Assembly: GCA_964354255.1 (NCBI GenBank)
Contig: CAYGYX010000002.1
Location: 8,697 to 72,696, forward strand
Reading direction: 5' to 3'
Length of the DNA: 64,000 bases
Origin: an uncultured Acidimicrobiia bacterium
GTDB lineage: Bacteria > Actinomycetota > Acidimicrobiia > Spongiisociales > UBA11373
The translations under genes and the position numbers were made by a program. Of the stretch, positions 11,487 through 58,539 are shown one piece after another (within the stretch, counting starts at the first letter, position 1; each line of letters opens with the position of its first letter). The notes beneath the pieces are model-generated. The model was not told where the DNA came from, did no database searches, and saw only the letters and a program-made list of their open reading frames with translations.

Positions 11487-11987
11487 CTACTCGCCGGTGG
11501 CGCCGTCGGCCGCTTCGCGCAGGAGATCGGCGTGGCCGGCGTGCCGGGCGGTCTCCTCTATCATGTGCAGCAGGATCCAGCGCAGGGTCACCGGATCCCC
11601 ACGGGTCGCGAGCGCGTCCAGCCCGGGGGCCGCCGCCACCACCTGCCGACTCTGCTCGGCCTCGCTGTGATAGAAGCCGGCCACGCCCTCCGGGCTCTCC
11701 CATTCCTCCGCACGCCAGTCGGCATCGGGATCCTCGTCCGACCAGGGGAAGGCGACGTCCCGCCCGGCGAATCTGGCCTGGAACCAGTAGCGCTCGACGA
11801 AGGCGAGGTGCTTGGCGACGCCGAGGAGGCTCATGCCCGAGGGCAGCAGGCTGGCGCGGCCCTGTTCAGGAGTGACGCCGTCGAGCTTCCAGAGAATGGT
11901 CTCGCGCAGGTCGTCCAGGAAGCCGGTCAGGAGGGCGAGTTCGTCGATGCTGGTTCTCGCGGCGTGTCGGCGGCCTCGGTACTGCAT
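11487..11987 (-). CDS. DinB/DUF664 (DinB_2, mycothiol-dependent maleylpyruvate isomerase N-terminal-like) family protein
   Basis: About 166 aa with a C-terminal His-rich metal-binding motif HMIEETARHAGHADLL, typical of DinB_2. Confidence 0.5.
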   Translation of the reverse strand: MQYRGRRHAARTSIDELALLTGFLDDLRETILWKLDGVTPEQGRASLLPSGMSLLGVAKHLAFVERYWFQARFAGRDVAFPWSDEDPDADWRAEEWESPEGVAGFYHSEAEQSRQVVAAAPGLDALATRGDPVTLRWILLHMIEETARHAGHADLLREAADGATGE

Positions 11988-12102
11988 GCAGGCACTCTAG
12001 GTCCGACCGGGCCGCCGGCCGGGCTGCCAGCCGCGGCCAAGCGGGAGCCTTGTTGGGATGAGAGGTTCGCCCCGGGCGTTCGTTGTTTGGTTTGTCTCTT
12101 GT

Positions 12103-12131
12103 AATATCGGGATATTCAGAGTATCCTGAAT
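12103..12131. promoter_or_regulatory. AT-rich overlapping inverted repeats immediately upstream of the regulator start codon (candidate operator)
   Basis: AATATC-GG-GATATT (12103..12116) overlaps ATTCAG-agtatc-CTGAAT (12114..12131). It sits in the only strongly AT-rich stretch (12090..12135) of this roughly 70% GC window, 3 nt upstream of the ATG at 12134 and inside the divergent intergenic region with the DinB-like gene. Confidence 0.4.
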
Positions 12132-12133
12132 CT

Positions 12134-12649
12134 ATGATGAGTACATACAGCGAGCATCAGCATCGCCTGGTTCGGGAGCTTCATTTCGCCGAGGACTGGG
12201 GCATGGTCTTCGAACTCCTGGCCATGCCCCGGATGGCCGGACGGGTCTGGGCGGTGATGGCGATGGCCGATGAGCCGTACTTGTCGGCCGACGACCTGGA
12301 GAACAGGTTGGAGGCGAGTTCGGGGGCCGTCAACGGGGCGCTGCAGTACCTGACCCGCCAGGGCGTGCTGGAGAGGGTGCGGGTGCCCGGCCAGCGCCGT
12401 TACTACTTCGGGCTGCGCCCCGGGACGATGGAGGTCCTGGTGGCGCGGCGGCTGGCGGTGATGGGTGAGATCCGGGACCTGGCCGCCCGCGGGATCCGGG
12501 AGTTCGCCGATCGCCCGGCAGCGCGCGCCCGCTTTGAGGAGGTTCACGAGTTCTACGAGTGGGTGGACGCGGAGATGGCCGCCCTCGTGGACCGGTTCCG
12601 GGAGTCGCGGCCCGCGAAGAAGCCGGCGAAGAAGGGGGCCCGGGCGTGA
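12134..12649 (+). CDS. winged-helix transcriptional regulator, GbsR/MarR-like
   Basis: The core RMAGRVWAVMAMADEPYLSADDLENRLEASSGAVNGALQYLTRQGVLERVRVPGQRRYYF resembles the GbsR/MarR wHTH. The track ORF starts at TTG 12083, but the ATG-ATG at 12134 follows the palindromes and is the preferred start. Confidence 0.5.
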   Translation: MMSTYSEHQHRLVRELHFAEDWGMVFELLAMPRMAGRVWAVMAMADEPYLSADDLENRLEASSGAVNGALQYLTRQGVLERVRVPGQRRYYFGLRPGTMEVLVARRLAVMGEIRDLAARGIREFADRPAARARFEEVHEFYEWVDAEMAALVDRFRESRPAKKPAKKGARA

Positions 12650-13344
12650 TCGAGCTGGCTGGGGTCGGGAAGACCTTCGGCGAGGGGGCGGGCAGGGTGG
12701 TGGCCCTGCAAGGTGTGGACCTGAGAGTCGAGGCGGGGGAGTTCGTGGTGGTGCTCGGGCCATCGGGGAGCGGGAAGACCACCCTCCTCAACCTCATCGG
12801 GGCACTGGACACCGCCACCGAGGGGACAGTCAGGGTGGGAGGAGTTGACATCTCCCGCGCCGCACGGCGCGAGCTGTTCGAGTTTCGCCGGCGAACCGTG
12901 TCGTTCGTGTTCCAGAGCTTCAACATCTTCCCCGGCCTGACCGCAGCCGAGAACGTTCAGTTCGGCATCGATGTCGCCGGACGGGCCGGGACCACCGCAG
13001 CCGAGATCCTGGCGAGCGTCGGCCTGGAGGGGCGGGAGGACAGCTTCCCGCATCAGCTGTCGGGAGGGGAGCAGCAGCGGGTGGCGATTGCCCGCGCCCT
13101 GGCCACCGGGAACCCGGTGCTCCTCGCCGATGAGCCCACGGGTGAGCTGGACTTCCGTACCGGGGTGCAGATCCTGGGCCTGCTCGAGGCGCGCGCCGCC
13201 GAAGGCCGCGCGGTGCTGGTGGTAACCCACAACCGGGAGATCTCCCGCGCCGCGGACCGCGTAGTGGAGCTCAGCGGCGGTCGCATCGTGTCGGATGGCC
13301 CGCCGGCAGGCGGGCGGGCCAGGACCGCGGACCTGCACTGGTGA
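12646..13344 (+). CDS. ABC transporter ATP-binding protein (MacB/LolD-type)
   Basis: Walker A GPSGSGKTT, the signature LSGGEQQRVAIARAL and Walker B LLADEPTGELD. A GTG start at 12646 overlaps the regulator's TGA stop (GTGA). Confidence 0.8.
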   Translation: MIELAGVGKTFGEGAGRVVALQGVDLRVEAGEFVVVLGPSGSGKTTLLNLIGALDTATEGTVRVGGVDISRAARRELFEFRRRTVSFVFQSFNIFPGLTAAENVQFGIDVAGRAGTTAAEILASVGLEGREDSFPHQLSGGEQQRVAIARALATGNPVLLADEPTGELDFRTGVQILGLLEARAAEGRAVLVVTHNREISRAADRVVELSGGRIVSDGPPAGGRARTADLHW

Positions 13345-22501: not shown

Positions 22502-22650
22502 CGGCGGATCTTAGGGGTTCGGGGAAGGTCGGCATGGCCCTAGAGTGACACCGTGTTCCGGCACCGCACCCGCCTGGTGAAGTGGCTGGGCGTCATCCTG
22601 GCGGTGATGCTGCTGCTCTCCTTCACCCTTCCCCTGCTCCTCTCCGGACG

Positions 22651-23460
22651 GTGAGCGAGGTCTTCCGCCCCGGTGAGCCGTGCCTGCTCGTGGACGGGCG
22701 GGGCCGGCACTACCTGGTCGACCTCGACCCGGATGGTGTCTTCCAGTACCACGTGGGAGCCCTGCCGCTCGGCCGGGTGATCGGGCAGCCGGAGGGGGCG
22801 GTGCTTCGCTCGTCGGGGGAAGGGCGGCTGGTGGCATTGCGCCCCCGCCTGGCCGACTACATCCTCCGGATGCGCCGGGGAGCGCAGGTGGTCTACCCGA
22901 AGGACATCGGGCCCATCCTGCACTGGGGGGACATAGGCCCCGGGATGAGGGTCCTCGAGGCCGGCACCGGGTCCGGGGCGCTCACCATGGCTCTGGTACA
23001 AGCAGTAGGGCCCACCGGGAACGTGGTCAGTGTCGAGGAGCGGCCCGACCACGCGGCCGGGGCCCGCGCTGCCATCCTGCGCTTCTTCGGAGAGCTGCCG
23101 CCCAACCTATCGCTGCGCCTCGGAAGGGTGGAGGACGTGGTGGAAGAGGTGGCCCCCCATCGGCTGGTCCTCGACCTGCCCGAGCCGTGGCTGGTGGTAG
23201 GCCCGGCCGCCGCCGGGCTGGCCGAGGGTGGGGTGCTCACCACCTACCTGCCGACCGTTCCGCAGGTGCAGCACCTCCACGATGAGCTTCGACGCTCCCG
23301 CCGGTTCCTCGACGTCTTCACCTTTGAGATCCTGCTTCGCGAGTGGGTGGCGGAAGGCCGCTCGGTGCGGCCGGCGAGCCAGATGGTGGGTCACACCGGG
23401 TTCATCACCACCGCCCGCAGGGTGGCGCCGCTGGGAGGCGACGAAGAAGACCGGGAATAG
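22651..23460 (+). CDS. trmI: tRNA (adenine58-N1)-methyltransferase TrmI (GCD14 family)
   Basis: Carries the SAM-binding motif VLEAGTGSGALT and TrmI-like N- and C-terminal regions. The start was set at GTG 22651 (VSEVFRPGEP). The track ORF begins at 22582 with a non-conserved extension. Confidence 0.75.
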   Translation: MSEVFRPGEPCLLVDGRGRHYLVDLDPDGVFQYHVGALPLGRVIGQPEGAVLRSSGEGRLVALRPRLADYILRMRRGAQVVYPKDIGPILHWGDIGPGMRVLEAGTGSGALTMALVQAVGPTGNVVSVEERPDHAAGARAAILRFFGELPPNLSLRLGRVEDVVEEVAPHRLVLDLPEPWLVVGPAAAGLAEGGVLTTYLPTVPQVQHLHDELRRSRRFLDVFTFEILLREWVAEGRSVRPASQMVGHTGFITTARRVAPLGGDEEDRE

Positions 23461-23462
23461 GC

Positions 23463-23489
23463 GGGGCCCCGCCGGGAAGGCGGGGCCCC
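23463..23489. terminator. GC-rich perfect hairpin between the convergent trmI and ferredoxin genes (terminator-like, no U-tract)
   Basis: GGGGCCCCGCC-gggaa-GGCGGGGCCCC, an 11-bp perfect stem that starts 3 nt after the trmI stop. Confidence 0.35.
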
Positions 23490-23513
23490 GTGCCGGAGAG
23501 GCGGCGGGGCCGG

Positions 23514-23762
23514 CTACTCCTCGATGATGAAAATGCACTCGCCGGGGCACTCCTCGGCCGACTCGCGGGTGGCGTCCTCCAGGCCCGCCGGGACCTGAGC
23601 AATACCTTCGGCACCCTGCGGGCTGCCCTTGGCGGCGGCGTAGATCTTGTCGCCCTCCCGTACATAGGCCAGCCCGTCGTCCAGTAGGACGAAGACATCC
23701 GGGGCGATCTCCTCGCAGAGCCCGTCGCCGGTGCACAGGTCCTGGTCGATCCAAACCTTCAT
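23514..23762 (-). CDS. ferredoxin (single-cluster, FdxA-like)
   Basis: MKVWIDQDLCTGDGLCEEIAPDVF...CPGECI cysteine pattern. The start was refined to MKVW (residue 12 of the track ORF). Confidence 0.65.
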   Translation of the reverse strand: MKVWIDQDLCTGDGLCEEIAPDVFVLLDDGLAYVREGDKIYAAAKGSPQGAEGIAQVPAGLEDATRESAEECPGECIFIIEE

Positions 23763-23885
23763 TGTTCCCCTCTGTAGTCGGGATTCGGCAAGCATTGTAT
23801 CGGCCGTGCTCGACCTCCCGGTCCACTCCCGAGACAGTAGGGTGCCGGCCGTATACTGACCGGCGGCCTACCCGGGAGGGCCCCC

Positions 23886-25607
23886 GTGCCCGAGGGCGAG
23901 AGCTCTGCCGAAGAGTCCGCTCAGACCATCAGGATGCTGGAAGAGGAGATCGCCATCCTCCGGCGGCGGCTGCAGGATGCCCCCCGCCGGGTGCGAGTCC
24001 TGGAGGAGCGCCTGCTCGAGGCGAAGGGCCGGCTCTCGCAGGCGACGTCCCAGAACGAACGCCTCTCGGCGGCTTTGCAGGAAACCCGCGAGCAGCTGAC
24101 GCTGCTGCGGCGCGAAGTGGAGAAGCTGACCGCCCCACCCAACCCCTTCGCCGTGATCGAGCGGGTCAACCCCGACGGCACGCTCGACGTGTTGACGGGA
24201 GGCCGCAAGCTGCGGGTGGGGGTCCAGCCCTCCATCGAGGTCAAAGAGCTGGACCGCGGCCAGGAGGTACTGCTCAACGAGGCCATGAGCGTGATCGACG
24301 TGGGCACATTCGACGCGGGGGGCGAGGTGACCACGGTCAAGGAGGTCCTGGGGGACGGCCGGGTCATCGTCGTCGGGCCGGCCGACGACGAACGGGTCGT
24401 GGGCCTGGCCGGGCCCATGGAGCCGGTTCCCCTGCGGGTAGGGGACGCGGTTCGCCTGGATGCTCGTACCGGGCTGATCCAGGAGCGCCTGGTGCGCCCG
24501 GAGGTCGAAGAGCTGGTGCTGGAGGAGATACCCGACATCACCTACGAGCAGATCGGCGGCCTGACGGCTCAGATCGAGACAATCCGCGACGCCGTCGAAC
24601 TGCCCTACCTCTACAAGCACCTCTTCGAGGACTACGAGCTCAGCGCCCCCAAGGGGGTGCTCCTCTACGGGCCCCCCGGCTGCGGGAAGACCCTCATCGC
24701 CAAGGCGGTGGCCAACAGCCTGGCCGGGGCGGTGGCGGCCAAGACCGGGTCGGTCGACGCCCGCTCCTACTTCCTCAACATCAAGGGCCCCGAGCTCCTG
24801 AACAAGTACGTCGGCGAGACCGAGCGCCAGATCCGCCTCATCTTCGCCCGGGCGAAGGAGAAGTCCGACGAGGGGGTCCCGGTCATCGTGTTCTTCGACG
24901 AGATGGATTCCCTCTTCCGCACCCGGGGGAGCGGCGTCTCGTCGGACGTTGAATCCACCGTGGTACCGCAGCTGCTGTCCGAGCTGGACGGGGTGGAGGG
25001 CCTCAAGAACGTGATCGTGATCGGGGCCTCCAACCGCGAGGACCTCATCGACCCGGCCATCCTGCGCCCCGGCCGACTCGATGTGAAGATCAAGGTGGAA
25101 CGCCCGGACGTGGCGGCCGCCCGGGAGATATTCGGGATCTACCTGCGGCGCAGCCTCCCCTTCGCCGATGACGAGCTGGGGGCTGCCGGGGGCGACCTCT
25201 CCGCTCTGATCGCCTCCCTGATCGACCGGGTGGTGGAGGCCATGTTCGCCACCGTCCACGAGAACCGCTTCCTCGAGGTGACCTATGCCAATGGGGACAA
25301 GGAGACCCTCTACTTCCGCGACTTCGCCTCCGGGGCGATGATCGAGAACGTGGTGCGCCGGGCGAAGAAGGCGGCAATCAAGCGGGAGATCGCCGGCGGG
25401 GCCAGGGGAGTGGGAGTCGGCGACCTGCTGGGGGCGGTGCGCCAGGAGTACCGCGAGCACGAGGACCTCCCCAACACCACCAACCCCGACGACTGGGCCC
25501 GCATCTCCGGCAAGAAGGGCGAGCGCATCGTCTACGTGCGCACCCTGGTGGAGGGAGACACCCCCCACCGCGCCATCGAGGCGATCAGCACGGGCCAGTA
25601 CCTGTGA
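23886..25607 (+). CDS. mpa: proteasome-associated AAA ATPase Mpa/ARC
   Basis: N-terminal coiled coil, Walker A GPPGCGKT, Walker [10 protein letters not shown] and a C-terminal GQYL proteasome-docking motif. It starts at a GTG. Confidence 0.9.
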
Positions 25608-27103
25608 GCCGGTCGGTCCGCAAGATCCTCGGGACCGAGACCGAGTTCGGCATCGCGGTGAGGGGACGGCCGGGCTACGACCCGGTCATGGCCAGCAGCC
25701 TGGCGGTGGCCGCCTACACCGGGCCTTCCCGCACCAACTGGTCCTCCGAGGAGGAGACGCCGGGGCGCGACGCCCGCGGGTTCGCCCGGATTGCCGGCGA
25801 GCCGGACACCGGCATGCTCAACGCGGCGCTGAGCAACGGCGCCCGCCTCTACGTCGACCATGCCCACCCCGAGTACTCGACCCCCGAGTGCTTCGACCCT
25901 CTCGAGGGAGCCCTCTACGACAAGGCGGGCGAGCTGATCATGGCTCAGGCGGCGGCTGCCGTCGAACTCCCTCCGGGCGAGCGGCTGCTGATCTACAAGA
26001 ACAACAGTGACGGGAAGGGCAACTCGTACGGGGCGCACGAAAACTACTTGATGGCCCGGTCGGTGCCCTTCGAGGAGATCGCACGCCACCTCACCGCCTT
26101 CCTGGTCACCCGACAGGTGCTCACCGGGGCGGGGAAGGTGGGGAGCGAGAACGGCCGCCCCCGGGTTTCCTACCAGATCAGCCAGCGGGCCGACTTCTTC
26201 GAGGAGGAGGTCGGGCTGGAGACCACGGTCCGGCGCCCCATCAACAACACGCGGGACGAGCCCCACGCCGATCCTGCCACCTACCGGCGCCTGCACGTGA
26301 TCGTCGGCGACGCGAACCTCTCCGAGCAGCAGATCTTCCTCAAGCTGGGCGCCACCGCCTTGGTGCTGGCCGCCCTCGAGATGGGGACGCTGGGCAAGCC
26401 GGTGGCGCTCGAGAGCCCGGTCGAGTCCCTCTGGCGAATCAGCCACGACCCCACCTTGCGCCGGACCGTCCGCCTGGCCGGCGGGCGCAGCGCGACGGCA
26501 CTCGATCTGCAGCACGAATACCTGAGCAGGGCGGCGGCCGGTGCCGGCGGGGAAGTCGGGGACCCAGTGTCCGGCCGGGTGCTGGCCCTTTGGGAGGAGG
26601 CGCTGGCGGATCTCGAGCGCGATCCGCTCTCCACCTCCGGCTACCTGGATTGGACGGCCAAGCTCGCCTTGCTCGAGGGGTATCGGGAGCGCGATCGCCT
26701 TGCCTGGGATCACCCCAAGCTGCGGCTGCTCGACCTCCAGTACCACGACGTCGACCCGCAGCGCAGCCTGTACGGGCGGCTGGTAGCGGCCGGGCGAATG
26801 AAGCGGCTCTTCAGTGACGAGGAGATCGAACGGGCCACCGTGGCCCCACCGGGGGGGACGCGCGCCTACTTCCGCGGGCGGTGCGTCGCCAAGTACGGTG
26901 AGGCCGTGGTGTCGGCCAACTGGGACTCGCTGGTGCTGGACACGGGCCGGGCTGCTCTCCAACGGGTGCCTATGATGGACCCGCTGCGCGGGGGCCGGGA
27001 GAGCGTGGCCGACCTCATAGATCGGTGCGCCTCGGCCGCCGACCTCGTCCGTGCCCTCGGAGGAAACAATGGCCGAACAGGAACGCAAACACCCCCGTCG
27101 TAG
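25604..27103 (+). CDS. dop: Pup deamidase/depupylase Dop
   Basis: PafA/Dop carboxylate-amine ligase fold ([23 protein letters not shown]). At 499 aa it carries the Dop-specific insertion, and it is positioned immediately upstream of pup. Confidence 0.85.
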
Positions 27104-53223: not shown

Positions 53224-53298
53224 CGGGCTGTGGCGCAGCTTGGTTAGCGCGCTTGACTGGGGGTCAAGAGGTCGCCGGTTCGAATCCGGCCAGCCCGA
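53224..53298 (+). tRNA. tRNA-Pro (anticodon GGG)
   Basis: Manual cloverleaf: acceptor CGGGCUG/CAGCCCG, D-stem GCGC/GCGC, anticodon stem CUUGA/UCAAG, loop CUGGGGG (U33, G34-G36 = GGG, G37), T-arm GCCGG-UUCGAAU-CCGGC and discriminator A. 75 nt with no encoded CCA. Confidence 0.8.
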
Positions 53299-53353
53299 CG
53301 GAGCTCCGCCTCCTGCCGGGCTTCGTCGGCGTTCCGGCGAGGAAGGTTGAGGA

Positions 53354-54004
53354 ATGAGCGAGCAGAAGATCGAGTTCACCCGCAACTACCACGACCAGAG
53401 CACCAACGAGGGATTCCAGTTCGAGTTCGTGTGCGACCGCTGCGGGACCGGCTTCCGCACTCCCTTCGACGACTTCGTGGTGGCCCGCGTCACGGGCGGC
53501 TTGCAGACCGCCTCGCACATGCTCGGCGGGCTGCTCGGGCGGGCCGCCCAGGTGGGAGAGCACGTCCGCTCCGCCGCTTGGGAGAAGGCGCACGACAAAG
53601 CCTTCCGCGAGGCCGCCGAGAAGCTGAAGCCCGACTTCCGGCAATGCCCGCGTTGCTCGAGGTGGGTGTGCCGCCGCCAGTGCTGGAACGACGGGAAGGG
53701 CCTGTGCAAGAACTGCGCGCCGGACCTGGGCGTGGAGATGGCCGCCGCTCAATCCTCCCGGACCGTGGAAGAGATCTGGGCGCACTCGAAGATGGCCGAG
53801 GAGGACAGGGAGATGCTGAAGGAGGAATCCTGGCGCGAGGGTGCCACCGCCTCCTGTCCCGGGTGCGAAGCCCCCTTGCCCGCCAAGACCAAGTTCTGCC
53901 CGGAGTGCGGTACCGCCATCGGCCGGGCGGCCAACTGCGCCAAGTGCGGCGCCAAGCTCGAAGCCGGGGCCAAGTTCTGCGGCGAGTGCGGGGCGAAGGC
54001 CTAG
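53354..54004 (+). CDS. hypothetical multi-zinc-ribbon protein (four or five CxxC pairs)
   Basis: CDRCGTG, CPRCSRWVCRRQCWNDGKGLCKNC, CPGCEAPLPAKTKFCPECG and CAKCGAKLEAGAKFCGECG. It sits 56 nt downstream of the tRNA-Pro. The overlapping frame of track ORF 53347..55707 was rejected for this segment. Confidence 0.55.
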   Translation: MSEQKIEFTRNYHDQSTNEGFQFEFVCDRCGTGFRTPFDDFVVARVTGGLQTASHMLGGLLGRAAQVGEHVRSAAWEKAHDKAFREAAEKLKPDFRQCPRCSRWVCRRQCWNDGKGLCKNCAPDLGVEMAAAQSSRTVEEIWAHSKMAEEDREMLKEESWREGATASCPGCEAPLPAKTKFCPECGTAIGRAANCAKCGAKLEAGAKFCGECGAKA

Positions 54005-54042
54005 GGGGCCACCTGCTCCGCCTCCCTCATGCCAACCTGGTC

Positions 54043-55707
54043 GTGGTCGCCGGGCCGCGGCTGGAGCCCGGGTGGCCGGCCCTGGTGGGGAAGGGCCGGC
54101 GGGGGACCGCCCGCCTCTTCACCAATTGCCACGCCCCGGCGGTCGAGCCTGCCGCCGCGGTCGGCATGCTGCTGGCGGGCGACCTCCCGTCGCCCGCCGA
54201 GCCGGTCGAGGAGCTGTGGCGGTTCGCCCCCCCGCACCTGGGCCACTTCCTGGCCGGATCCCACTACCGCCTGGCTCTGCTGCTGGCGGCCCCCGCGATC
54301 GCCCAGGAGGTCAGGAGCAGCACCTTCGCCACCGGTTTTGACGACGTGCGGCTGGTGGAGCCGGGCGGTCACGGCGGTGCTGCCCTCGGGGCCGCGGCCG
54401 CTCATCTGGCCGAGTGCGCGAGGCAGGCCGACCGTCCCTGGTACCTGTTCGCTTACCTCCCGGGGGAGGATGGCCTCTTGGAGGCCATCGCCGCCCTGAT
54501 GGCCACAACCTCGTTCCGCAACACCATGCTCGTGGTGTACGACACCGGCCTGGGCGGCACCGGCCCCACGCGCCGCACCCCGCTGTGGCTGGAGCGCCCC
54601 GGCCGGCCCGGACCCATCAACCCGGGGTCGGTGGTGTACCCCCACCTGGTCTCTCCGGTTGACCTGCCGCTCACCCTGCTAGGGGAGACAACCCCCGCCT
54701 CGCCGATCGCCCGCGATCTGTGGACCCGCGCCGGCGGCCTCCGGGGCGACCTCCTCGCCGCCACACTCGGGGTCGGCGGGCAGGTGGACGACGAGGTCGC
54801 GGCAGCCTGCCTGCTGCGCCTAGCCGCCACGCGGGGGGCCCCCGCCCCGGGCCGGTTCGAGCCGGTCTCCTTCGTGGTCGCGGTGGACGACCCGGCCGAG
54901 CTGCACAACAACCTGCTGCGGTGCCCTCTCGCCCGGCACAGCGAGCATCAGTGGCTGTTGATCGACAACACCCAAGCGGCGTACCCGAGCATCTCCCGCC
55001 TCTACGACGACGCCTACGGGCGCGCCGTCAACGACCTCGTGCTCTTCTGTCACCAGGACCTCCTACTTCCCGAGGGCTGGGAAGCTCTCTTCTTCTCCGC
55101 CCTGGCCGACCTGGAACGGGCCGACCCGGCCTGGGGGGTCATCGGTTCAGTGGGGGTGGTGCCCCACCCGCCCACAGCCAGTCAGGAGCCCCTGCGCCGG
55201 GCGTCCCGGTTGCGCGGGCACTGGGCAGACCCGAGAGGCCATCACTACGCGGGGCCCCTGCCCCACGCCGTGGACTGCCTGGATGAGATGTGGCTCGGCC
55301 TGCGCAAGAGGAGCGGGGTTCGCTTCGATCGGGACCTGCCCGGCTTCCACTGCTATGGCATCGACCTCTCGCTGACGGCCCGTCGCACAGGGCGCCGGTC
55401 CTATGCGCTCGACTCCTTCGTCTGGCATAAGCATCGCGACGCGCAAGGCCGAGTGATCACCCGGCCCCAGGAGTCAACCCGCATCCGCCAGCGCTCCGGC
55501 GAGCAGTTCCGCCAGCGCTATGCCCAGTCATATGATTACGTCGCCGGCAAGTGGGGACAGATGCGGCCCTTCGCCTCGACCTCGGCGGATTGGCCCGCCT
55601 GCCCTCCTGGGCCGGGCCTCCCGGCCCCAGACGGGCCGCGGAAGGCAAGAGGGTCAGCAGCGGAGGGGTCGGCTCATCCGACGCCGCCGCCGGGCAGAAT
55701 GCGCTAA
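54043..55707 (+). CDS. hypothetical 554-aa protein with a C-terminal glycosyltransferase family 2-like (GT-A fold) region, possibly two degenerate GT-A halves
   Basis: This is the second part of track ORF 53347..55707, beginning after the Zn-ribbon gene stop. GTG 54043 (VVAGPRLEPG) was chosen as the start. The C-terminal SFVVAVDDPAELHNNLLRCP..WLLIDNTQ..LVLFCHQDLLLPEGW..FHCYGIDLS resembles GT2 motif order, with DxD replaced by HQD. There is no signal peptide or TM segment. Confidence 0.4.
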   Translation: MVAGPRLEPGWPALVGKGRRGTARLFTNCHAPAVEPAAAVGMLLAGDLPSPAEPVEELWRFAPPHLGHFLAGSHYRLALLLAAPAIAQEVRSSTFATGFDDVRLVEPGGHGGAALGAAAAHLAECARQADRPWYLFAYLPGEDGLLEAIAALMATTSFRNTMLVVYDTGLGGTGPTRRTPLWLERPGRPGPINPGSVVYPHLVSPVDLPLTLLGETTPASPIARDLWTRAGGLRGDLLAATLGVGGQVDDEVAAACLLRLAATRGAPAPGRFEPVSFVVAVDDPAELHNNLLRCPLARHSEHQWLLIDNTQAAYPSISRLYDDAYGRAVNDLVLFCHQDLLLPEGWEALFFSALADLERADPAWGVIGSVGVVPHPPTASQEPLRRASRLRGHWADPRGHHYAGPLPHAVDCLDEMWLGLRKRSGVRFDRDLPGFHCYGIDLSLTARRTGRRSYALDSFVWHKHRDAQGRVITRPQESTRIRQRSGEQFRQRYAQSYDYVAGKWGQMRPFASTSADWPACPPGPGLPAPDGPRKARGSAAEGSAHPTPPPGRMR

Positions 55708-55726
55708 GCACAACGGAAGGAAGTCA

Positions 55727-56896
55727 ATGACGGCCTATGGAGTGGTGGGAGCCGGACGCCAGGGCACCGCGGCGGCGTACGACCTGGCCCGGCACGGCGG
55801 CGCTACCCGCCTCGTGGTGGCCGATCAGGATGGGGCGGTGGCCCGGCGGGCCGCCGACCGCGTGAACCGCCTCCTCGGCGCGGAAGTGACCGAGGCCGCC
55901 GAGTTCGACGTGGCCGACCGCCGCGCCCTGGCCAAGTTCCTCTCGCCGCTGGACGTCTACATCTGCGCCGTGCCGTATGCCTTCTTGCTGCCCTGCACCC
56001 GGGCGGCCATCGCCTCCGGTACCGGCATGGTCGACTTGGGAGGGCACACGGACACCGTCGTGGCACAACTGGCGTTGCACCCCGAGGCCCGCCAGGCGGG
56101 CGTGGCCATCGTGCCCGACTGCGGCATGGGACCGGGCATGAACAACACCCTCGGGCTCTACGCCATGGAGCTCATGCAAGCCCGGGGTGCCACCCCCCGC
56201 CACATCCGCTTGTGGGACGGGGGCCTGCCCCAGGATCGCTCCCAGCCCTGGGGCTACCGCCTCTGCTTCAACCTCGAGGGCCTCACCAACGAGTACGACG
56301 GCGAGGCGGTGATGCTGCGGGAAGGGCGCATAGTCCACGTCGAGACGCTGAGCGAGTTGGAGCCCGTCGACTTCGACGAGTTGGGCACTCTCGAGGCCTT
56401 CGTGACCTCCGGCGGGACCTCCACCGTCCCCTTCGCCTTCCAGGGAGTCCTGGAGACCTACGACAACAAGACGGTCCGCTACCCGGGCCACCTGGAGGCT
56501 TTCAAGGCCTTCAAGGACCTGGGTCTCTTCGGGCGGGACCCGGTGCGGGTGGGCAAAGCCGAGGTCCGCCCGCGGGACTTCTACCACGCCCTCCTAGGCC
56601 CCATCATCGAGTCGGAAGGCCTGGTGGACGTGTGCGTGCTCCGGGCCCAGGCCGAGGGCGAGATGAACGGGGAGCGCGCCACAGTCACCGTCGACATGGT
56701 CGACCGGCACGACCCGGCCACCGGGTTCGCCGCCATGGAGCGCCTGACCGGATGGCACGCCTCGATCATGGCCGCCCTCATCGCCGCCGGCGAAGTGCCC
56801 GCCGGGGTGCATTCGCTGGAGAAGGCCGTGCCGGCAACCCGGTTCATGCAGGAGGTCCGCCGGCGCGGGCTTTCGTTCAGCGAGCGCTGGGGTTAG
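55727..56896 (+). CDS. saccharopine-dehydrogenase-family NAD(P)-dependent oxidoreductase
   Basis: Rossmann motif VVGAGRQGTAAAYDLA and Sacchrp_dh N- and C-domain architecture. An RBS (GGAAGG) precedes the ATG at 55727. The track ORF start at 55520 was rejected. Confidence 0.65.
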   Translation: MTAYGVVGAGRQGTAAAYDLARHGGATRLVVADQDGAVARRAADRVNRLLGAEVTEAAEFDVADRRALAKFLSPLDVYICAVPYAFLLPCTRAAIASGTGMVDLGGHTDTVVAQLALHPEARQAGVAIVPDCGMGPGMNNTLGLYAMELMQARGATPRHIRLWDGGLPQDRSQPWGYRLCFNLEGLTNEYDGEAVMLREGRIVHVETLSELEPVDFDELGTLEAFVTSGGTSTVPFAFQGVLETYDNKTVRYPGHLEAFKAFKDLGLFGRDPVRVGKAEVRPRDFYHALLGPIIESEGLVDVCVLRAQAEGEMNGERATVTVDMVDRHDPATGFAAMERLTGWHASIMAALIAAGEVPAGVHSLEKAVPATRFMQEVRRRGLSFSERWG

Positions 56897-57565
56897 CGCA
56901 CCGGCGTCGGAACGGGTCGTGCCCGTTCCCGACCGCCTGCCGTCAGCGGGACGACCGGGCGGCCGCCGGCATGCCCGGGCCGAGAGGAGCCGGATACGAT
57001 CCGGCCGAGCTTCCCGGGAAGGCCCTCCGGCTCCGCCAGCAGAGGCCCGCTCAGCCCGTGTTCCCACGCTCCCCAACCCAGCCCCCGTCCGCCCTCCTCA
57101 TCCCCTGGCAACCCGAGCAGGTTGGGAACGTCCTCCGCGCTCCCGGCGACGGAGGCCATGACCCGCAGTCTGAAGGCCACCCCGAAGCCGAGGCCGTCCC
57201 CGTGGAGCCCGAGAACCTCCAACGTGTCCGGCCCCCCCGAATGCAGCCTCCAGCCAGAACGCGATGTTGGTGGTCCCGGGCGGGTCGAAACCGGCGGTCT
57301 CCTCGTCTTGGTCGGCGCCAGCCGGAGGGGCCCAAGTCGCCAACCCGGCTACCACCATCGCCGCCAACGCGCCGCGGCGCTGCTCTGGTGTCGTCGCCGA
57401 CCTACTGCTGCGACCCATCATGCGAGTCACCGGCCCGAAGGGCCCCCGGAACTCGAAACCCCCTCCGGCGGCGGAGGAGCCCGGCCCGCCTCCCGGCCCC
57501 GGCGGCAACCGCCCGACTACCCTCCACCCGGTGCCGGTGCCCGCCGGGCAAGAGGAGGCCCGCCC

Positions 57566-57973
57566 ATGCGCCTGACGGTAGCCATGCTCGCCGACTCCGC
57601 CCAGGTGGCCGGTGGGAAGCTGTACGTGCTCGGAGGTGCCTTCGACACGATCAACGCCCGAGCCTTCCCTGCGCTGGTGCGCGGCCTCTCGGTAGTCCTG
57701 GTGGCCGAGGTCGAGCCCGCCGACCGCAATCGCGACCTGCCCATCGCCATCCGCCTCCTCGATGAGGACGGCGCGGCAGTTGGGGTGGAGTCGAAGGGCA
57801 TGATGCGGGTGGGGTCACCGTCCTCGCTCCCGGCCGGAGCCTCGAGCCTGGTCCCGCTCGTCGGTTCCTTCCTCGGGGTCCGCTTCCCCAAGGCGGGCGG
57901 CTACCTCTTCGTCATCGAGCACGAAGGCAAGGAACTGGGCCGCATCTCCTTCCGGGTGCGGGAGGCCAGGTGA
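57566..57973 (+). CDS. hypothetical 135-aa protein, translationally coupled to pgsA
   Basis: MRLTVAMLADSAQVAGGKLYVLGG.., preceded by a strong SD (AGAGGAGG). Its stop overlaps the pgsA GTG (GTGA). The upstream in-frame portion of track ORF 57122..57973 is junk-like and was rejected. Confidence 0.5.
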   Translation: MRLTVAMLADSAQVAGGKLYVLGGAFDTINARAFPALVRGLSVVLVAEVEPADRNRDLPIAIRLLDEDGAAVGVESKGMMRVGSPSSLPAGASSLVPLVGSFLGVRFPKAGGYLFVIEHEGKELGRISFRVREAR

Positions 57974-58539
57974 GCGGCCGCATCCTCACCATCCCCAACG
58001 TGATCTCGCTCGTGCGGGTGGCCCTGGTGCCGCTGTTCCTCTGGCTCCTCTTCGGAGCCGATGCTCCTATGCCCGCCGGGATCCTTCTCGGGGTGATCGG
58101 CGGCACGGACTGGATCGACGGCTTCCTGGCCCGCCGCCTCGGCCAGGTGTCCGAGCTAGGGAAGCTGCTCGATCCCGTCGCCGATCGGCTGGCCATCACC
58201 GCGGCGGTGATCGGCGGGTGGATAGCCGGAGTGCTGCCCTGGCCGGTGGCCCTGGCACTCGTGGTCAGGGAGACCGTCCTTGCCGTCGGAGCACTGCTCG
58301 CCGCCTGGCGCTGGGGAGTGCGGGTCGAGGTGCGCTTCCTGGGCAAGGTGGCCACCTTCGGGCTCTACTCGGCCATCGGGTCCTTCTACGTGTACGCCGG
58401 CTTCCACCATCCCTTCTTCATCTGGTGGGCCTGGGCGGTGGTGGTGCCCGGCCTCATCCTGTACTACCTGGTCGGTGCCCAGTACTTCCTCGACATCCTG
58501 AAGAGGCGACGGCAGGCCGCCCCGGTATCCTCCGGCTGA
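57970..58539 (+). CDS. pgsA: CDP-alcohol phosphatidyltransferase (phosphatidylglycerophosphate synthase-like)
   Basis: Carries the D-x2-DG-x2-AR-x8-G-x3-D-x3-D motif (DWIDGFLARRLGQVSELGKLLDPVADR). Confidence 0.8.
   Translation: MSGRILTIPNVISLVRVALVPLFLWLLFGADAPMPAGILLGVIGGTDWIDGFLARRLGQVSELGKLLDPVADRLAITAAVIGGWIAGVLPWPVALALVVRETVLAVGALLAAWRWGVRVEVRFLGKVATFGLYSAIGSFYVYAGFHHPFFIWWAWAVVVPGLILYYLVGAQYFLDILKRRRQAAPVSSG

Follow-up and report, generated by a model that had tools for sequence, protein, structure and literature searches.

The subject of this study is the stretch between der and a pgsA-like gene on contig CAYGYX010000002.1 of an uncultured Acidimicrobiia bacterium, analysed as part of a 64-kb stretch of DNA (hereafter the window). 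Four genes follow a tRNA-Pro(GGG) gene at this place, encoding a 216-aa zinc protein (labelled ZnR), a large two-domain protein (P554), a protein of the saccharopine-dehydrogenase family (SDH) and a DUF6941 protein. The region is neither a tRNA-integrated island nor a new biosynthetic system, but a conserved gene block with one rare inserted gene, P554. The explanation that fits best, and which we consider probable, is that P554 has been inserted into and maintained in this Acidimicrobiia block, and that it encodes a majastridin-like, probably nucleotide-sugar-dependent transferase that is not obligately linked to SDH. A false lead is thereby removed, the apparent tRNA-flanking island being conserved Acidimicrobiia order plus one inserted gene.

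Gene order between der and pgsA in Acidimicrobiia

ZnR was used to scan a genome collection, all window proteins were then compared by tblastn, and contexts were looked up from DUF6941 homologues; these searches revealed an order that extends across the class: cmk–ispH–der–tRNA-Pro(GGG)–variable slot–DUF6941–pgsA-like–gcvH–FHA–MerR–dacB. The tRNA gene and the DUF6941–pgsA pair, with its 4-nt overlap, are fixed members of this block and only the stretch that follows the tRNA varies. The segment der–tRNA-Pro(GGG)–ZnR–SDH–DUF6941–pgsA could be seen in the order and orientation of the window, without P554 at the locus, in an Acidimicrobiia contig (L007, JAFGCH010000147) and in an Actinomycetota contig (L008, JBDROA010000092). 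The identities of these two loci to the window are 79% for der, 86–87% for ZnR, 76–77% for SDH, 72–82% for DUF6941 and 77–83% for pgsA, and the tRNA-Pro(GGG) sequence is identical in both. Two further loci (L117 and L118) follow the window order over a longer distance, ScpA/B–aroA–cmk–ispH–der–tRNA-Pro–ZnR–SDH–DUF6941–pgsA–gcvH–FHA–MerR–dacB, again minus P554. A complete Acidimicrobiia genome (L115, CP129495.1; DUF6941 66% identical) keeps cmk–ispH–der, tRNA-Pro and DUF6941–pgsA–gcvH–FHA–MerR in their places, with a carboxyltransferase and a Septum_form gene instead of ZnR and SDH (der–carboxyltransferase–tRNA-Pro–Septum_form–DUF6941–pgsA). The pgsA-like gene heads a conserved downstream block (pgsA–gcvH–FHA–MerR–dacB) and, since the der block adjoins the pgsA block across the class, the window holds no local synteny breakpoint. 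An earlier note on this DNA had described four lineage-specific genes at such a breakpoint; three of the four, together with the tRNA, occupy the same position in L007, L008, L117 and L118.

The slot contains ZnR and the SDH-family oxidoreductase in the subclade of the window, and in a narrower subclade (the window, L006 and L005) P554 is additionally present between them. The spacer separating ZnR from SDH, about 90–125 nt long in L007, L008, L117 and L118, is filled by P554 in these three loci. L005 and L006 are two short metagenomic contigs on which ZnR, P554 and SDH are arranged as in the window; L006 is 99% identical to it, and the identities of L005 are 86% for ZnR, 62% for P554 and 85% for SDH. 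Over its first 113 residues the SDH of L005 (85%) is nearer to that of the window than the SDH of L007 and L008 (69–72%), so that the P554-bearing genomes look like a subclade.

A closer look at the junction with SDH disclosed a short motif, (G/C)CAGAAYGCGC, placed about 30 nt 5' of the SDH start and upstream of the ribosome-binding site in all seven loci (window, 55688–55710; L005, L006, L007, L008, L117 and L118). The stop codon of P554 lies directly 3' of this motif in the window, and in L005 the P554 open reading frame (ORF) extends into the SDH start with a 4-nt overlap. Beyond residue ~520 the tail of P554 shows no conservation, differs in length between sequences and is disordered, with a low predicted local distance difference test score (pLDDT), and reads into the ancestral ZnR–SDH spacer. 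The retained motif and the unconserved tail are as expected if the gene landed in the old spacer and the end of its ORF was recruited from it. The motif could represent a promoter element of the -10 kind (TAGRRT-like) or some regulatory site, and SDH might be transcribed from a promoter of its own within the 3' part of P554, at CAGAATGCGC. A consensus scan for promoters and terminators gave no signal exceeding the shuffled background.

The tRNA-Pro(GGG) gene (53224–53299, plus strand), correctly placed beside the cluster by the earlier note, was identified by ARAGORN and Rfam (66 bits), by alignment and by tRNA scans of related loci. No second copy of its 3' end was found in the 64-kb window at up to three mismatches, the sole match being the tRNA itself; a search for flanking repeats found none; and no integrase or recombinase was seen when the four proteins and the ORFs in the gap downstream of SDH were scanned with Pfam, NCBIfam and PADLOC. 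The absence of an integrase and of a tRNA 3' repeat, already stated in that note, was reproduced in this way. The PADLOC defence models had zero matches among the four proteins. GC content is flat over the region, and the GC content at third codon positions (GC3) is 0.88–0.92 for the four genes against 0.87–0.91 for flanking housekeeping genes. The GC3 comparison, proposed earlier as a check, gives no support for a foreign origin, the value for P554 (0.88) being equal to those of its neighbours (0.87–0.92).

Several features would suit a single cassette. The four genes are co-directional and closely spaced, the slot after the tRNA varies at class level (Septum_form in L115, ZnR–SDH in the others), and ZnR, P554 and SDH are collinear in L005 and L006. 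However, presence and absence in close relatives is not block-wise: P554 alone is variable, and ZnR, SDH and DUF6941 stay in place in the four loci without it (L007, L008, L117 and L118). The pairing of a glycosyltransferase (GT) with SDH is not supported either, as 62 other loci with P554 homologues are devoid of SDH and ZnR, and homologues elsewhere adjoin sulfotransferases or amidases, never ZnR or SDH. ZnR, in turn, is found in more than 40 loci of other phyla without SDH, DUF6941 or pgsA close by, and a conserved hairpin and the gap stand between SDH and DUF6941 in the window. The members of the cluster thus separate across loci when co-occurrence is examined, and neither the single cassette or island at the tRNA that had been proposed nor a functional pairing of its two enzymes is supported.

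Domain architecture, relatives and selection of P554

P554 (53986–55707, plus strand) comprises 573 aa from its probable start at GTG 53986 and 554 aa from GTG 54043, from which residues are numbered here. The upstream start is preferred because the genes of L005 and L006 are called there and because the additional 19 codons, conserved at the level of protein sequence, encode the first beta-strand, the counterpart in the alignment of the NILLFVVDD strand of longer relatives of the protein (long forms, see below). From this start the gene overlaps ZnR by 19 nt, and a spacer of 19 nt separates its stop (55707) from the SDH start (55727).

Residues ~270–520 show a GT-A fold, modelled with pLDDT values above 90. 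The top Foldseek match of this domain is the complex of majastridin with UDP (2QGI, E 1e-13), and phmmer aligned residues ~327–493 with majastridin (2NXV, E 3.6e-16). Three pairs of motifs are aligned between P554 and majastridin, FCHQDL with FCHEDV, LDEMWL with LDECFL and GFHCYGIDLSL with GFHYYGADLCL. Majastridin has HED at the DxD position, and HQD in P554 is therefore a form of the motif proper to this family. The key residues are H337-Q-D339, D414-E415 and H462. Across 103 family sequences there is no variation at W364, G371, D414, D429 and H462, and conservation is at least 90% at H337, D339 and E415; P554 keeps every invariant residue of the family C-terminal domain. The homology to majastridin and the Foldseek result bear out the earlier proposal of a GT-A-like C-terminal half with HQD instead of DxD. 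The structure check was less kind to the companion idea of a degenerate GT repeat in the N-terminal half, which has a sulfatase-like fold.

This N-terminal domain (residues ~1–265) is a shortened alkaline-phosphatase/sulfatase alpha/beta fold, and the structure comparison together with this assignment rules out a second GT repeat. BLAST matches to the sulfatase domain of the long forms are weak (22–30% identity). In the alignment the domain is about 150 residues shorter than in these forms and is missing all catalytic positions: VVDDLR of the long forms is replaced by VAGPRL, the GWT nucleophile region by VEP and SDHGEG by YDTGLGG, and the same losses are present in all six short-form sequences. 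No match to PF00884 or PF01663 was obtained in P554, whereas the long-form relatives match both. Given the loss of the Asp residues for metal binding, of the nucleophilic Thr and of the DH motif, the domain is probably non-catalytic.

Proteins with this architecture are very scarce. A word-indexed search of 5.8 billion proteins returned 35 relatives of P554, six of them full-length short forms, and when 1.84 billion cluster representatives were searched exhaustively with phmmer, 1105 proteins were obtained at E≤1e-3, all aligned to residues ~265–520, of which five match over the full length and the others in the GT-A domain only. About six clusters out of 15 billion proteins show the short-form architecture, which ties the GT-A family of majastridin to partners of the sulfatase-like and sulfotransferase types. 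The nearest relatives are Planctomycetota proteins of ~675 aa, with 50–56% identity in the C-terminal domain and intact PF00884/PF01663. Of 102 representatives of this GT-A family, PF13712 is matched by 43 and PF00535 by 13; a fused Sulfotransfer_3 domain is present in 30 and a Sulfatase domain in eight. A metagenome scan yielded 59 loci, and in 36 of them a gene for a ~281-aa PF13469 sulfotransferase follows the GT gene, with an overlap of ~45 nt. Examples among loci L056–L113 can be found on Planctomycetota-type contigs (L112, 250–1095; L059, 8001–10717). The GT fusion and its overlapping sulfotransferase gene have the appearance of a module of two genes, as yet undescribed, for sulfated glycoconjugates. 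As the companions of the family are sulfotransferases and sulfatase-like domains, sulfated-glycoconjugate chemistry would be its ancestral role, and the family appears to be ancestrally linked to sulfotransferases through gene overlap or fusion.

No sulfotransferase was found in the window by tblastn. Weak sulfotransferase matches at 22.8–25 kb were identified as TrmI and the Mpa/ARC ATPase. Two distant short forms (L001 and L003) adjoin amidase genes, one of them also lying near sulfotransferases, and neither is accompanied by ZnR or SDH. The amidase genes belong to PF01425. A protein of ~340 aa with no Pfam match is encoded 3' of the short form in L001 and in five metagenome loci, the copies of L001 and L099 being 33% identical. 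These features were recorded at L001 (8422–9825 and 11646–12662), L003 (11584–12978) and L099 (732–1766).

The comparison of P554 with its counterpart in L006 gives nine synonymous and five nonsynonymous differences, that is, a ratio of nonsynonymous to synonymous substitution rates (dN/dS) of ~0.2; judged from this pattern, the gene is selectively maintained and not decaying. Between the window and L005 the identity of P554 (62%) is below that of its neighbours (85–86%), with 54% in the N-terminal and 72% in the C-terminal domain.

Neighbouring genes and spacers

ZnR (53354–54004, plus strand) is a soluble protein of 216 aa with a C-terminal double zinc ribbon. Its 16 Cys are arranged in eight CxxC-type pairs, enough for four predicted Cys4 Zn sites, and are invariant or near-invariant across the family; the description of a multi-Zn-ribbon protein in the earlier note agrees with this, the Pfam DZR/Zn_Ribbon matches being confined to residues 167–215. 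The family comprises at least 2792 proteins, and members with 60–70% identity occur in Acidimicrobiia, Anaerolineales and other Chloroflexota, Armatimonadota, Acidobacteriota, Bacillota and Thermoleophilia (at least five phyla), with the motifs FTRNYxDxSTNxGFQFEF and QCPRCSxWVCxxxCWN common to the family (loci L007–L054). The predicted model is of only moderate confidence, with a pLDDT of 67 overall and of 78–90 in the N-terminal core. Neither a solved structural relative nor a functional annotation was found for ZnR, and its neighbourhoods are uninformative, since the top neighbour is common to at most eight of 48 loci and none is conserved. ZnR is a strikingly constrained orphan family and the more intriguing by-product of this analysis, a 16-Cys protein conserved from Actinomycetota to Chloroflexota, Bacillota and Acidobacteriota. 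Some members bear the JGI label "stomatin/prohibitin", probably owing to the C-terminal zinc ribbon alone. A homologue 69% identical to that of the window appears on a contig assigned to a metagenome-assembled genome (MAG) of the archaeon Methanomethylovorans (L014, NZ_JBGMEB010000017.1), where it is probably an Anaerolineales binning contaminant or a recent transfer.

SDH (55727–56896, plus strand) is an NAD(P) oxidoreductase in which both Pfam domains score above threshold (PF03435, 52 bits, cut-off 25.1; PF16653, 125 bits, cut-off 31), so that the family assigned in the earlier note stands. Residues 8–13, GAGRQG, correspond to the GxGxxG motif, and the nearest solved structure is 3ABI (E 1e-22). 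The synteny and the leader motif described above further define this gene.

The DUF6941 protein (57566–57973, plus strand; 135 aa) matches PF22091 with an E value of 1e-24 (87.4 bits, cut-off 27) over 125 of 125 profile positions, and is conserved across Acidimicrobiia, where over 120 clusters reach an identity of 66% or above. Its stop overlaps the GTG start of the next gene by 4 nt (GTGA), as expected from the translational coupling to pgsA proposed before, and this overlap is conserved in every locus examined, including L007, L008, L115, L116 and L118. The downstream gene (57970–58539, plus strand; PF01066) encodes a pgsA/ClsA-like, Rv1822-like CDP-alcohol phosphatidyltransferase, which scores below the cut-off of the NCBIfam ClsA and pgsA models alike. 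The class-wide overlap suggests that DUF6941 is a stoichiometric partner or a regulator of this transferase, and the coupling hints at a role in phospholipid synthesis.

The spacer between SDH and DUF6941 is 105–111 nt long in L008, L117 and L118 and about 670 nt in the window, where the gap (56897–57565) is lineage-specific and devoid of any family match. In L007, and only there, the spacer holds a radical-SAM/SPASM gene (11959–13203, minus strand; CVAHCVMC; PF04055 and PF13186). Such variability makes this spacer a second insertion hot spot. Just 3' of the SDH stop the gap opens with a perfect 8-bp hairpin, GGAACGGG-TCGTG-CCCGTTCC. Two minus-strand ORFs lie in different frames (57508–57098 and 57222–56893) with a partial coding-like GC-phase pattern, the hint of minus-strand coding being placed at ~57090–57240, and the N-terminus of a minus-strand ORF resembles a twin-arginine signal (EQRRGALAAMVVAGLA). 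Over 56897–57565 there was no Pfam match for these two ORFs or for an in-frame upstream extension of DUF6941, and no Rfam match; the gap has no similarity to the radical-SAM gene of L007 or to the Septum_form gene of L115, and tblastx against relatives gave low-complexity noise. The gap may be the frameshifted, decayed remnant of a gene for a small secreted protein, for which the homologue search was empty.

The window is actinobacterial, with a high GC content of ~72%, and its nearest genomic relatives are Acidimicrobiia MAGs. A TrmI-like tRNA methyltransferase, a Mpa/ARC proteasomal ATPase and a Pup-ligase-family gene (Dop/PafA) lie at 22582–27103, the last two at 23.9–27.1 kb; these genes confirm an actinobacterial genome with a pupylation system, an ordinary finding. 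No hydrophobic segments were detected in ZnR, P554, SDH or DUF6941. An Rfam scan of 52.9–58.7 kb gave the tRNA alone above threshold, and two sub-threshold matches (mir-1249 and P10) were set aside as chance.

Proposed role of P554 and comparison with known systems

In the proposed scheme one extra gene would have entered the ZnR–SDH spacer in the subclade formed by the window, L006 and L005. Its product would be a soluble enzyme with a binding site for a nucleotide or nucleotide-sugar and a divalent metal, with H337, D339 and H462 as ligands and D414/E415 as the base region, and that transfers a glycosyl group to a cytoplasmic acceptor, the dead sulfatase-fold domain serving as a binding or scaffold module. 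Binding of a nucleotide or nucleotide-sugar is suggested by the H-x-D, D-E and His residues kept in the C-terminal domain, and a transferase mechanism is most likely in view of the fold, the UDP complex of the homologue and the residue conservation. In the window the gene lacks a sulfotransferase partner, and its sulfatase-like domain is dead. The gene anatomy, folds, homology, synteny and scarcity of the architecture are direct results, whereas the activity, the gain of the gene and its independence from SDH are inferred.

Several points weigh against this scheme. P554 has no Pfam match at E≤0.1 and no NCBIfam or PADLOC match. To our knowledge majastridin has no assigned function, and we know of no member of its family with an established reaction, donor or acceptor; a literature search found majastridin mentioned only incidentally and nothing relevant for PF13712 and sulfotransferases. 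As no activity is known in the family, the term glycosyltransferase denotes for P554 a conserved fold and conserved motifs. The dN/dS value is based on 14 substitutions in total, and a gain of P554, as opposed to its loss, is read from five related loci without a species-tree root. The gene is, moreover, tightly packed, overlapping ZnR by 19 nt, standing 19 nt from SDH and, in L005, overlapping it by 4 nt.

Such packing against both ZnR and SDH leaves room for the best-placed alternative, by which the inserted P554 was recruited by its neighbours, is co-translated with ZnR and acts on ZnR or on the substrate or product of SDH, for example by glycosylation. The start overlap with ZnR is identical in the window, L006 and L005, and the purifying selection on P554 would also be in keeping with it. 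We nonetheless regard recruitment as unlikely: the conserved partners of the family elsewhere are sulfotransferases and not ZnR or SDH, SDH keeps its own conserved and possibly -10-like upstream motif, and close packing is the norm throughout this genome. Ranking just after it, and doubtful as well, is the possibility that P554 is in decay or has no enzymatic function, including transferase activity, being a pseudoenzyme in both halves that has lost both the live sulfatase domain and the sulfotransferase partner. The N-terminal domain has indeed been stripped of its catalytic residues and of ~150 aa, no sulfotransferase accompanies the gene, and P554 diverges faster than its neighbours, most of all in this domain. 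Against decay stand an ORF intact in three lineages, a dN/dS of ~0.2, a confidently modelled C-terminal domain with all its invariant residues, and the higher identity of that domain between the window and L005.

It is improbable that the short form is a distinct, undescribed class of cytoplasmic transferase in which the dead sulfatase domain recognises the acceptor (e.g. a sulfated or phosphorylated small molecule or protein) and which, in this subclade, is translationally coupled to ZnR and modifies it or cooperates with it; if true, it would offer the first functional handle on both the majastridin and ZnR families. Least probable of all, and largely refuted by the synteny, is that the four genes form one mobile or lineage-specific cassette, integrated just 3' of tRNA-Pro, whose GT-A and SDH enzymes produce a conjugate of the sugar or polyamine type. 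The inserted majastridin-like transferase is accordingly preferred, and the region provides three leads of modest value (the P554 architecture, ZnR and the DUF6941–pgsA coupling), none of which is yet a new system.

SDH has both Pfam domains in common with PH1688 of Pyrococcus horikoshii (3ABI) and with saccharopine reductases, at low similarity. The N-terminal domain of P554 resembles inactive alkaline-phosphatase-fold domains such as the periplasmic domain of PbgA/YejM in fold only. YejM itself is not known to have a full catalytic set. Proteins of the PbgA/YejM type are membrane-anchored and periplasmic and act on phospholipids, in contrast to P554, which has no signal peptide or transmembrane segment. 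The Planctomycetota proteins annotated as sulfatase-like hydrolase/transferase (e.g. P0005–P0035) share the domain order of P554, sulfatase-like followed by GT-A, but they keep the DD, GWT and DHGEG residues, PF00884/PF01663 and ~150 more residues, all missing from P554, and are followed by an overlapping PF13469 sulfotransferase gene, with none at P554. With PF13712 (Glyco_tranf_2_5) and GT2-type enzymes (ppGalNAc-T, KfiA, TarP, SpsA) P554 shares the GT-A fold and an acidic/His motif at the DxD position, although this motif is HQD instead of DxD and the sequence identity to characterised GTs is only 8–16%. The ppGalNAc-Ts use DxH at this position. Majastridin, a stand-alone protein of 249 aa encoded by ORF6 of the Rhodobacter blasticus atp operon (PDB 2NXV, and 2QGI with UDP), is linked to P554 by the common motifs H-E/Q-D, LDE and GFH-YG, to which P554 adds a degenerate sulfatase-like domain of 265 aa, a disordered tail and an unrelated gene context.

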